Shown: positions 34,569 through 53,038 of the stretch, piece by piece
Layout: each line of letters opens with the position of its first letter
How positions within the stretch are numbered: the first letter of the stretch is position 1
Source of the DNA: Nitrosopumilus sp.
GTDB taxonomy: Archaea; Thermoproteota; Nitrososphaeria; Nitrososphaerales; Nitrosopumilaceae
Direction: 5' to 3'
Assembly (NCBI GenBank): GCA_965197525.1
Contig: OZ240211.1
Location: 384,001-448,000 of the forward strand
DNA: 64,000 bases
The notes under the pieces: generated by a model
Databases searched by the model: none
What the model saw: only the letters and a program-made list of their open reading frames with translations
What the model was told of the DNA's origin: nothing
Made by a program: the position numbers and the translations under genes

Positions 34569-34805
34569 TGTTCTGTCAGGTTATCGAGAGCTAAAAAAAG
34601 GTGATACAATGAGCAGCGATTCTAAATGATAACAGATACAAGTATTATCTTTTTGTCTAATCATCGAGTAAAAATAAACTGGCAGACCGGCAATCCAAAT
34701 AGTAGATATAACAGTCAACAATACGAGATTTGACTCGTTAACTTGAGAGAAAAATGACATCAATTTTTGAGTTAATATATTAGATCTCTATAACCCGACA
34801 GAACC
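34569..34805. mobile_element. 237-bp non-autonomous element (MITE-like) of the GGTTCTGT-TIR family
   Basis: Left end TGTTCTGTCAGGTTATCGAGAGCTA and right end (reverse complement) GGTTCTGTCGGGTTATAGAGATCTA match at 21/25. Each is 20/25 identical to a TIR of the TnpB elements. No TSD seen. Confidence 0.7.
34581..34763 (-). CDS. Small hydrophobic ORF carried inside the MITE-like element
   Basis: 60 aa with one TM-like stretch LVLLTVISTIWIAGLPVYFY; its stop lies within the left TIR. Confidence 0.3.
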   Translation of the reverse strand: MMSFFSQVNESNLVLLTVISTIWIAGLPVYFYSMIRQKDNTCICYHLESLLIVSPFFSSR

Positions 34806-44041: not shown

Positions 44042-45347
44042 GGTTCTGTGAAGTTATAGAGACCTTATTTATGAGGATAGGCGTACATAAATGCCCCAAA
44101 ATCATAGAATATTGGTTGAAGGCAATAAAGTCAATAGCACAAAAATATACGCCAAACTCTGACCTAATGGATATGATGGCCACATTCACAGAAATGGTTA
44201 ACCGTTGCATCAAGATAGGGTTAAAAGAAGACACACACAATATGAAAAGGCTATCATGTCTATGCTATCACGAATTGAGAGACTATGACATTTTATCGTC
44301 ATACAAACTAAATGCAATATCAAGGGCTACTGGCATATTGGCAAACAGAAGACAGTCAATAAAACGTGGTGTCAAGGTTAGATACCCAAAGGTAACAAAG
44401 CCGTTTATCACTAATTGTTACGGTATAAAACACAATGGTGCGCTACTCACAATCCCATACAAGAGTAGAAATTCAATCAACATCTTGTTAAACCCGCATA
44501 CCCAAAAAATCCTGTCGAATCCTGACTTGACAGTACGCTCGTTTTCATTGACTGCCTTTAGCATCAATCTTTGCGTTTCCAAGGAGACTGAACAGATAGA
44601 ATGTACCAAGACGGTAGGAATCGATAGAAATTTGAGGAATGTTACATGTGGCAATGAGGAGCAAGTAACATTTTACAAGACAAACAAACTGCTATCCATA
44701 AAAGAGAACACCATGCACGCCAGAGCCGGATTCCACAGAAATGATCGCAGAAAGAAAGGTCAATTCTGGAAGATAAAACAGCGAAGAATGGCCAATAGAA
44801 CAAAACAATACATACACAGAATATCAAAAGATATTGTGGATAATGCCGTCAAAGAAAAGGCTGTAATCGTTCTAGAAAACCTAAAAGGAATTAGAAAACT
44901 CTACAAAAAAGGAAATGGCCAAGGCAACAAATACAGGCGCAGATTAAACGGATGGCAATTCTACGAGTTACAACGCCAAATAGAATACAAAGCCCAATGG
45001 GTCGGGCTCCCGCCAGTCGAATATGTAGACCCAAAAAACACGAGCACGCAGTGTCCAAGATGCGGAAAGAAACTCCAAGAGGACATGCAACACAGACGTA
45101 AAATGTCGTGTAATAATTGTGGATTGTACACGGACAGAGACATTGTAGCTGCCATGAACATATCACGCAAACCGTCCCCTAGGTTTAGGGATAGCAGAGA
45201 TGACATAGGTGAAGCGCAGTCCGGTGTTTTTGAACCGGCGATGATGGAACCCTGCATACCGGTAATCCAGATAGTCGATATGTCAAAGTCGAGTGATAGG
45301 AGGATATAACTTGTTAAATCAACAGGTACCTATAACTTTACAGAACC
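44042..45347 (+). mobile_element. 1306-bp TnpB-only element bounded by IS6-like terminal inverted repeats (copy 1)
   Basis: Left TIR GGTTCTGTGAAGTTATAGAGACCTT (44042-44066) and right TIR reverse complement GGTTCTGTAAAGTTATAGGTACCTG (45323-45347) match at 21/25. No TSD (ATTATATC vs AAAATAAA). Confidence 0.8.
44116..45309 (+). CDS. tnpB: TnpB RNA-guided endonuclease (RuvC plus Zn finger), copy 1
   Basis: GIDRN (RuvC-I D), VLENL (RuvC-II E), CPRC/CNNC and DRDIVAAMNI (RuvC-III D). The TTG start at 44116 aligns with the start of copy 2. Confidence 0.93.
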   Translation: MKAIKSIAQKYTPNSDLMDMMATFTEMVNRCIKIGLKEDTHNMKRLSCLCYHELRDYDILSSYKLNAISRATGILANRRQSIKRGVKVRYPKVTKPFITNCYGIKHNGALLTIPYKSRNSINILLNPHTQKILSNPDLTVRSFSLTAFSINLCVSKETEQIECTKTVGIDRNLRNVTCGNEEQVTFYKTNKLLSIKENTMHARAGFHRNDRRKKGQFWKIKQRRMANRTKQYIHRISKDIVDNAVKEKAVIVLENLKGIRKLYKKGNGQGNKYRRRLNGWQFYELQRQIEYKAQWVGLPPVEYVDPKNTSTQCPRCGKKLQEDMQHRRKMSCNNCGLYTDRDIVAAMNISRKPSPRFRDSRDDIGEAQSGVFEPAMMEPCIPVIQIVDMSKSSDRRI

Positions 45348-51254: not shown

Positions 51255-51719
51255 TCACGTATCCTCAATCAGCACCTTGAGATTCTCAAGTGAGTGTTTG
51301 TAAAAGGATTTCAAAGACGCGTAAAAATCACAGAATTCAACGGAAGTCATGGAGTGGCTATTAAAATAGGACTGCCATTGTAGTCTCACCGTATTACCAG
51401 ACAAGGGTCTAATGGATAATGTTGCAACATATGCTCGTAATGGCAGTCCATGCGTTGCAACATATGTAAAAGATTCATCGCTATTCCATGCAACAACATG
51501 CTCTTCAACAATATTACCATCTGCAAATGATATCAGCCGTACTGCCCCAATACCGCGTGTCTTCTTTGAGATACATGTAACCTTAGTTACACCATCTGCC
51601 CAAGCTGCCAATCCCATAACATTGCTAATATGTTGCCAAACCTGCTCTTGTGATGCATTGATTTTGATAGTTTGTTTAAGCATGTCGGTATGAAATGATT
51701 TTTTTGGTTTACGAGTCAC
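51255..51719 (-). CDS. SRPBCC/polyketide cyclase (MxaD-like) family protein
   Basis: TIKINASQEQVWQHISN..W...GIGAVRLISF..G..VEEHVVAW pattern. Confidence 0.75.
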   Translation of the reverse strand: MTRKPKKSFHTDMLKQTIKINASQEQVWQHISNVMGLAAWADGVTKVTCISKKTRGIGAVRLISFADGNIVEEHVVAWNSDESFTYVATHGLPLRAYVATLSIRPLSGNTVRLQWQSYFNSHSMTSVEFCDFYASLKSFYKHSLENLKVLIEDT

Positions 51720-51726
51720 AATATTA

Positions 51727-53014
51727 GGTTCTGTGAAGTTATCGGGAGTTAACCCCTATAACTCGACTTTGACATATCGACTATTCGGATTACCAATGGT
51801 GTGCTGGGTTCCGTCATCGCCTGCTCAAAAGTGCCGGACTGTGCTTCACATATGTCATCTCTACTGCCCCTAAACCTAGGGGGCAGTTTGCGTGATATGT
51901 TCATGGCAGCGATGATGTCCCTGTCCATAAACAAACCGCAATTATTACACGACAATTTACGATGTTGTTGCATGTCCTCTTGGAGTCTCTTTCCGCATTG
52001 CGGACACTGCGTGCTCGTGTTTCTTGGGTCTACTGTCTCGACTGGAGGTAGTCCGACCCATTGGGCTTTGTATTCTACTTGGCGTTGTAACTCGTAGAAT
52101 TGCCACCCGTTCAATCTACGTCTGTACTTGTTACCTTGAGTGTTTCCTTTTCGGTACAATTTTCTTATTCCTTTCAGGTTTTCCATGACGATTGCAGTCT
52201 TGTTTTTGACTGCGTTGTCTACTATATCCTTTGAGATTCTGTGGATGTACTGCTTTGCTCTGTTAGTCAGTCTTCTCTGTTTTTCCTTGTAGAACTGATT
52301 TTTCTTCCTGCGGTCATTTCTGTGGAAGCCTGCCCTGGCGTGTATTGTGTTCTCCTTTATGGATAACAGTTTGTTTGTCTTGTAGACTGTCACCTCTTCC
52401 TCGTTCCCGCACGTCACATTTCTTAGGTTTCTGTCTATTCCCACTTGATTGGTGCACTCTATCTCTTGTACTTTTTTTGAAACACAAAGACTGATGTTGA
52501 GAGCAGTCAATGAAAACGAGTGCACCGTCAAGGCGGGATCAGATAGGATTTTTTGGGTGTGATCGTTGAGCAAAATGCTGATTGGGTTATGTTTCTTGTA
52601 TGGGATTGTTAGTAGTGCACCGTTGTGTTTTATGCCGTAACAGTTTGTCATAAAGGGATTTTTGAGTATTGGGTCTCTTATTCTGACACCTCGTTTGATT
52701 GATTGTTTTCTGTTTGATAATATGCCTGCAGCTCTTGATATTGCACATATCTTGTATGTTGATAAAATGCCATAGTTACGTAATTCATGATAACATAACA
52801 TGGACAACCTCTTCATATTGTGAGTGTCTTCTTTCAACCCTATCTTGATGCAATGATTGACCATCTTTGTGAATATAGCCATCATATCCATTAGATCAGA
52901 GTTTTGCGCATATTTCTGTGATATTGACTTTATCGCTTTCAACGAATATCTTACGGTTTAGAGGTTTATACATTTTAGGAATTGACATATAACTCCCGAT
53001 AACTTCACAGAACC
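51727..53014 (-). mobile_element. 1288-bp TnpB-only element with perfect 25-bp IS6-like TIRs and 8-bp TSD (copy 2)
   Basis: TIR GGTTCTGTGAAGTTATCGGGAGTTA at 51727-51751 with its exact reverse complement at 52990-53014. Direct repeat CAATATTA at 51719-51726 and 53015-53022. Confidence 0.93.
51749..52942 (-). CDS. tnpB: TnpB RNA-guided endonuclease, copy 2
   Basis: GIDRN, VMENL, CPQC/CNNC and DRDIIAAMNI are all intact. Roughly 80% identical by eye to copy 1. The stop codon lies within the TIR. Confidence 0.93.
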   Translation of the reverse strand: MKAIKSISQKYAQNSDLMDMMAIFTKMVNHCIKIGLKEDTHNMKRLSMLCYHELRNYGILSTYKICAISRAAGILSNRKQSIKRGVRIRDPILKNPFMTNCYGIKHNGALLTIPYKKHNPISILLNDHTQKILSDPALTVHSFSLTALNISLCVSKKVQEIECTNQVGIDRNLRNVTCGNEEEVTVYKTNKLLSIKENTIHARAGFHRNDRRKKNQFYKEKQRRLTNRAKQYIHRISKDIVDNAVKNKTAIVMENLKGIRKLYRKGNTQGNKYRRRLNGWQFYELQRQVEYKAQWVGLPPVETVDPRNTSTQCPQCGKRLQEDMQQHRKLSCNNCGLFMDRDIIAAMNISRKLPPRFRGSRDDICEAQSGTFEQAMTEPSTPLVIRIVDMSKSSYRG

Positions 53015-53038
53015 CAATATTACAAAAAATGAGAGGAA

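Follow-up and report, generated by a model that had tools for sequence, protein, structure and literature searches.

A TnpB-only insertion sequence with IS6-like ends in Nitrosopumilus carries an omegaRNA-like structure and a one-sided flanking motif that may guide conversion of empty sites

Introduction

TnpB is commonly thought to earn its upkeep by restoring transposons that have been excised scarlessly. The IS200/IS605 family is defined by the absence of terminal inverted repeats (TIRs) and of a target-site duplication (TSD), by subterminal hairpins, and by Y1 TnpA as the mobilising enzyme. In ISDra2, which has no TIRs, no TSD and a Y1 TnpA, excision is scarless and the TAM is the transposase's own target site.

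TnpB proteins have also been described in association with DDE transposons. Section 9 of Altae-Tran et al. (2023, PNAS, PMC10691335) presents six such branches (DDE-1 to DDE-6), which have inverted repeats, and infers that solo TnpBs with matching ends move in trans. A 2026 review gives ISL2, IS630 and IS1031 as the partners of the DDE branches and does not name IS6 (PMC13565253). Where Fanzors occur in eukaryotic DDE transposons, the TAM includes the 5' TSD, and the 3' TSD contributes to the RNA scaffold (PMC13565253, section 6.2). The IS6 family, in turn, is characterised by 8-bp repeats and by short TIRs that have GG at their tips and contain a cTGTt motif (Varani et al. 2021, PMC7986276); according to the same review, only one member has a passenger gene and none carries tnpB (PMC7986276).

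Here, we analyse a tnpB unit with IS6-like ends located in a 64-kb stretch of Nitrosopumilus DNA (hereafter, the window). The host genome (G000) consists of one contig of 2.21 Mb, with 39.6% GC and 99% completeness.

Results

The tnpB unit (Table 1) spans 1288 bp (window positions 51727-53014) and is bounded by a perfect 25-bp TIR at both ends. The TIR sequence, GGTTCTGTGAAGTTATCGGGAGTTA, reads on the plus strand at the right end and on the minus strand at the left end with 0 mismatches, the chance expectation being 0 matches, and its tips begin GGTTCTGT. An 8-bp direct repeat, CAATATTA, flanks the unit on both sides. The sole long ORF within the unit is tnpB, whose stop codon forms the inner edge of the right-end TIR, and the contents of this ~1.3-kb unit are limited to tnpB and a predicted guide-RNA scaffold. 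No transposase gene was found within the 64-kb window. The analysis thereby recovered the features reported in the earlier note, namely the 1288-bp unit with its perfect 25-bp TIR and perfect 8-bp repeat, an intact tnpB as its only gene (a single long ORF with TnpB profile matches above their cut-offs) and a window devoid of a matching transposase. A 13.4-kb contig of a related organism joins position 51718 to position 53015, omitting 1296 bp (1288 + 8) and keeping a single copy of the 8-bp duplication. Given this precise empty site, the unit in the window is a true insertion.

Table 1. Coordinates of the TnpB element and its flanking features in the window
Feature	Position	Strand	Remark
Predicted guide template	51707..51726	-	20 nt just beyond the right end, in tnpB direction; begins with the duplication copy (8 nt, 51719-51726); inferred from geometry
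Right-end TIR, 3' of tnpB	51727..51751	-	Tip would form the last scaffold bases of the omegaRNA
tnpB, 397 aa, RuvC D-E-D and CxxC..CxxC zinc finger intact	51749..52942	-	Profiles, alignment
omegaRNA-like structured core in the 3' third of tnpB	51770..51941	-	Covariation, lowered synonymous divergence, retention in MITEs
Hairpin with near-invariant loop CTAGGTTTA, inside the omegaRNA-like core	51864-51886	-	Fold of the alignment; the core also has a long-range helix
Left-end TIR, 5' of tnpB	52990..53014	-	Perfect inverted copy of the right end
Second 8-bp TSD copy CAATATTA	53015..53022	.	Empty site in the relative has one copy
TAM-like motif TTG (CAA on the + strand)	53023..53025	-	Abuts the 5' side of the duplication when read in the tnpB direction

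Just downstream of the right end of the element, an SRPBCC/polyketide-cyclase-like gene (window 51255-51719, minus strand) lies on the same strand, with its likely ATG ~40 bp from the insertion. The promoter of this gene was probably displaced by the insertion, and read-through from the TnpB element could drive its expression.

As the earlier note had anticipated, the same TIR bounds further copies in the host genome, and an empty site exists in a relative. The genome contains 16 full copies of the 1286-1289-bp unit with 92-100% identity, 12 of which have their own distinct and perfect 8-bp duplications, and tnpB is open in 15 of the 16. Several sister families in the same genome show 75-86% DNA identity together with similar ends and duplications. 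Additionally, MITE-size deletion derivatives of 208-497 bp bear both element ends and retain its final 270-350 nt along with a short 5' segment. Close relatives of this TnpB are rare within the genus. In summary, the TnpB element is a multicopy, active-looking insertion sequence. At first impression, tnpB would be expected in IS200/IS605, which could suggest another origin, in which each TIR would be left over from a different flanking IS copy and tnpB would be the relic of an IS200/IS605 (IS1341-type) element stranded between them. The recurrence of one unit in 16 full copies, of which 12 have TSDs of their own, and the precise empty site refute this origin; the miniature derivatives bearing the same two ends and the lack of a Y1 TnpA in the genome also speak against it, and its probability is practically negligible.

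The window also holds a sister-family TnpB-only element at 44042-45347 (1306 bp, ~80% identical, GGTTCTGT-type ends), which has no TSD and whose left flank is without T-R, as well as a MITE-like 237-bp unit at 34569-34805 with TGTTCTGT/GGTTCTGT ends, a degraded remnant of the omegaRNA block and no TSD. In a second Nitrosopumilus genome (G313), two elements (L035 and L038) have swapped duplication halves, the left flank of one being the right flank of the other. Such reciprocal flanks are a mark of inter-copy recombination, which accounts for elements without a TSD. The TSD-less copies and this one reciprocal flank exchange in a relative are the only, and indirect, signs of a putative replicative cointegrate transposition.

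The 397-aa ORF matches the NCBIfam guided_TnpB profile with 122.5 bits (cut-off 100) and the Pfam Cas12f1-like_TNB profile with 73.8 bits (cut-off 26.3), and a profile built for the family finds solved structures of TnpB and Cas12f, among them ISDra2 TnpB (E about 1e-11, PDB). The RuvC triad, assigned by motif to D170 (GIDRN), E254 (ENL) and D342 (DRD), and the zinc-finger residues C313/C316/C332/C335 do not vary among 11 sequences with identities as low as 61%. By profile membership, the ORF is a TnpB, an OMEGA RNA-guided nuclease with predicted cleavage activity. The dN/dS of tnpB between families (0.07-0.14) indicates that the protein is under strong purifying selection.

With regard to the mobilising enzyme, neither a Y1 TnpA (Y1_Tnp) nor a serine recombinase (Resolvase) gave a domain match in the 99%-complete one-contig genome. 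Eight IS240-type DDE matches were found in the host genome, five of which lie within elements with GGTTCTGT TIRs, and two of these five have perfect 8-bp duplications. Elements of the IS6-like DDE type that combine GGTTCTGT TIRs with 8-bp TSDs lie at G000 positions 746475-748444 and 1956395-1960520. Among the elements with GGTTCTGT TIRs, a clean one of 1970 bp (L017) encodes an intact 378-aa IS6-like transposase, and an IS6-like one of 3.2 kb, whose 30-bp TIRs are perfect (L020, G000:699962-703151), encodes an intact transposase of 383 aa. The latter element has as passengers an N6/N4 DNA methylase and an HNH endonuclease, i.e. a restriction-modification-like pair on a transposon. The partner transposases score 42-53 bits against Pfam DDE_Tnp_IS240 (cut-off 27), and their best NCBIfam match is IS6, with 103 and 121 bits, below the cut-off of 125, followed by IS1 with 55-61 bits. 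Their N-termini contain SWIM and IS1/IS1595-type Zn-ribbon modules fused to a catalytic domain of the IS240 type. When these proteins were used as tblastn queries against plasmids, 389 of 389 matches were annotated as IS6, at 26-29% identity. The transposase family is present in 115 of the 301 genomes of the order.

The termini of the two kinds of elements were compared. One sister TnpB family is identical to the L017 DDE element at 18 of 18 terminal bases, the family of the window shares 14 of 18 with transposase elements of the host genome, none of which has identical TIRs, and in the second Nitrosopumilus genome the end of a decayed transposase element is identical to a TnpB element end at 27 of 28 positions. 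A search of 80 TnpB loci and 30 DDE loci found no composite element with both a transposase and tnpB. IS1595 was considered as a partner and rejected, the genome having two IS1595 transposase genes with no GGTTCTGT-type ends found around either. One IS1595-family transposase gene (L145, G000:614149-617577) is located directly after a tRNA 3' fragment, and the N-terminus of its product (MNARQTRGQ) resembles those of the IS6-like transposases. A 171-bp MITE at G000:338241-338411, with GGTTCTGT-type ends, keeps the last codons of an IS6-like transposase; thus, the transposase elements also give rise to miniatures.

The lack of Y1 and serine TnpA, together with the presence of IS6-like DDE elements sharing GGTTCTGT ends and 8-bp TSDs, makes it well supported that the TnpB cassette is moved in trans by an IS6-like DDE transposase, the assignment to a particular transposase being putative. 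The proposal in the earlier note that tnpB lies between DDE-transposon ends and is mobilised in trans therefore gains support from the multicopy TSDs, the empty site, the IS6-like elements and the missing Y1 and serine TnpA. Its attribution of the ends and the 8-bp TSD to the IS6 type also holds, since the GG tips, the cTGTt motif and the 8-bp repeats fit the IS6 definition (PMC7986276). The expectation of an autonomous IS6 transposase within the same TIRs was borne out in part: similar ends do bound IS6-like transposases and agree fully for one sister family, but the family of the window agrees at only 14 of 18 bases. Compared with IS6 (IS26, IS257, ISS1; clade h with an N-terminal zinc finger), the elements are alike in their 8-bp duplications, GG tips and cTGTt motif, in the IS240-type DDE domain of the partners and in the occurrence of TSD-less copies, as expected after inter-copy recombination. 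They differ in that the partner transposases share only 26-29% identity with annotated IS6 transposases, fall just under the NCBIfam cut-off and add SWIM and IS1/IS1595-type Zn domains.

To examine the RNA encoded in the element, the last 260 nt of 22 elements were aligned. The consensus fold comprises 24 pairs, with compensatory changes at 14, and includes an 8-bp hairpin, whose stem is wholly swapped between clades around a nearly invariant loop (CTAGGTTTA), and a long-range helix that closes the RNA core. For most sister families, dS amounts to 1.0-1.7 in the first ~273 codons of tnpB versus 0.33-0.65 in the last ~124, synonymous divergence being 2.5-3.5-fold lower in the 3' third than in the 5' part. 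These patterns point to a conserved omegaRNA-like structure within the 3' third of tnpB, the 3' extent of which we infer. In the sister families, a variable spacer of 40-110 nt separates the conserved RNA core from the TIR, so the scaffold may not reach the element end. At the tips, variation within the first 5 nt was seen in 2 of 86 right ends versus 25 of 86 left ends (P about 1e-6), which indicates that the right tip is under an extra constraint beyond transposase binding. The sequences further suggest that the loop GGUUU may pair with GAACC of the right tip as a guide-adjacent pseudoknot, a structure said to form in prokaryotic omegaRNAs (PMC13565253, section 6.2); both segments hardly vary, and covariation is therefore uninformative on this pairing. 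An Rfam scan of the element yielded no family match and a single chance lncRNA match. A fixed guide inside the element, after the conserved RNA block, was also considered and rejected, no non-self target for it being present in the genome. In one sponge metatranscriptome run, contigs lie over the element, more of them over the 3' part of tnpB and one passing the right end; such contigs show neither transcription, strand nor RNA ends and were left out of the evidence.

To characterise the insertion sites, each element was oriented with tnpB running from left to right, and only those with perfect duplications were counted (n=46). Twenty-five of them belong to the host genome and 21 to other genomes of Nitrosopumilus, Nitrosotenuis, other Nitrososphaeria and Bathyarchaeia, with TnpB identity down to about 40%. 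Immediately 5' of the left duplication copy, at positions -10/-9, T-R was present in all 25 host-genome elements and in all 21 from other genomes. The complete TTR occurred at this position in 19/25 and 16/21 elements, respectively, T-R being mostly TTG or TTA. On the mirror (right) side, T-R was found in 4/25 and 4/21 elements; across the genome, the background frequencies of TR and TTR are 14.5% and 4.4%. The base at -9 leans towards G in the family of the window (12G:4A) and towards A in the sister families (18A:5G; P=0.0025), and T-R holds across TnpB elements of differing TIR subtypes and phyla. The occupied left junction matches the predicted guide over 8 nt only. In canonical TnpB systems, the TAM precedes the left end and the DNA past the right end supplies the guide. 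The arrangement found here fits a role of TTR as the TAM, with a guide that would consist of the duplication and the right flank. MITEs without the RNA part are too few in the host genome to serve as a control for the motif.

A second TnpB-only family (1.64 kb; G000:874688-876323 and three more copies), unrelated to the main one, has other TIRs (GGGAATTAC...) and 8-bp TSDs. It shows no TTR at the matching position (n=4), and thus the geometry of TAM and TSD is not general to all TIR-bounded TnpBs.

The motif might instead reflect a target preference of the IS6-like transposase itself, which would move the cassette in trans with TnpB as a passenger that has another role or none. Some DDE transposases do have target preferences, and no transposase element of the genome has ends identical to those of the family. 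Nevertheless, transposase-only relatives with perfect duplications have T-R on just 2 of 18 sides, in a control of only nine elements from subfamilies other than the true partner. Moreover, the perfect 25-bp inverted ends offer little left/right cue by which a transposase could impose an orientation-specific motif, yet the motif is strictly one-sided and spans TnpB elements with different TIR subtypes and from different phyla. The strong purifying selection on TnpB likewise argues against a mere passenger, and we regard a transposase preference as an unlikely source of the motif.

The motif could also arise if TnpB, with or without the omegaRNA, recruited or positioned the DDE transposase at the TAM, so that insertion was directed right after TTR. 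The presence of T-R in 46 of 46 elements with intact TSDs, near-identical young copies included, is in line with this possibility, as the lack of exceptions even in young copies points to a filter that operates during insertion or very shortly afterwards. Such a role has no precedent for TnpB, the nearest being the Cas12k CRISPR-associated transposons; transposase and tnpB do not share an element at any of the 80 TnpB and 30 DDE loci. We consider this putative role quite improbable. If true, directed insertion would represent a minimal, CRISPR-free relative of RNA-guided-nuclease-assisted transposition, in which TAM recognition helps to choose the DDE insertion site.

Discussion

We propose, with a probability of roughly 0.6 for the reading as a whole, that the element is a non-autonomous insertion sequence in which tnpB, with its embedded omegaRNA scaffold, is packed between IS6-like terminal inverted repeats and in which TnpB converts empty sites under the guidance of a TTR TAM. 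An IS6-like DDE transposase encoded elsewhere would move the cassette in trans and create the 8-bp duplication. The omegaRNA would be read from the 3' third of tnpB via the right TIR into the flank, and hence the guide would comprise the 8-bp duplication and the sequence that follows it. The uninserted allele, made up of TTR, N8 and flank, would then contain a TAM and, after it, a fully matching target. TnpB would cut such empty sites, and repair from the occupied copy would convert them, either on sister chromosomes or in alleles met via DNA exchange. Only insertions landing directly after TTR would gain this drive, which would explain why T-R is found at all intact insertions.

Homing by the TnpB element is thus a predicted component of the proposal, covered by the probability given for the whole. 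Polyploidy is not known in Nitrosopumilus, which leaves the arena for homing uncertain. In addition, IS6 transposition is replicative and involves no excision, so the published rationale of restorative homing is not directly applicable (PMC13565253, section 6.2).

Compared with the ISDra2-type TnpB-omegaRNA of IS200/IS605 (PDB 8EXA, 8H1J), the element is alike in having a RuvC nuclease with a zinc finger, an RNA scaffold within the 3' end of tnpB, a guide expected from the flank past the right end and a T-rich motif 5' of the left end. In contrast to ISDra2, it has IS6-like ends, and its motif is separated from it by an 8-bp duplication, which would supply the first 8 guide positions. The perfect 25-bp TIRs, the 8-bp TSDs and the lack of Y1_Tnp in the genome place the element outside IS200/IS605, including the IS1341 group. 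As in the Fanzors of eukaryotic DDE transposons, a TnpB-type nuclease rides a transposon with TIRs and TSDs; unlike in Fanzors, the TSD is random sequence here and would be part of the guide and the target.

The branches in the published description by Altae-Tran et al. (PMC10691335) are alike in their inverted terminal repeats, in a tnpB 3' end located less than 250 bp from the element end (here, the stop codon lies inside the TIR) and in solo copies inferred to be mobilised in trans. As far as that description goes, the present family is set apart by a transposase that was found in the same element at none of the 80 TnpB and 30 DDE loci, although the family may overlap with one of those branches. 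The novelty that the earlier note had assigned to the pairing of TnpB with DDE ends was therefore overstated, such pairings being catalogued in PMC10691335, although IS6 is not among the partners named (PMC13565253). What is new here is the one-sided flanking motif, the embedded covarying RNA and the conservation of the right-end tip. The text of Altae-Tran 2023 (PMC10691335), as far as it was available to us, makes no mention of a one-sided TTR beside the duplication, and our literature search found no paper on a TAM abutting a random TSD in prokaryotes or linking TnpB with Nitrosopumilus.

A compact TnpB of ~400 aa with a short predicted TAM, distributed across Nitrososphaeria and Bathyarchaeia, may interest those who mine genomes for small genome editors. 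In the organisms studied here, TnpB does well in an element for which both the ends and the partner enzyme indicate a replicative DDE family that generates TSDs. The geometry of TAM, TSD and flank provides a concrete way in which an RNA-guided nuclease could still recognise an empty site, and the findings suggest that TnpB function decides which insertions persist.
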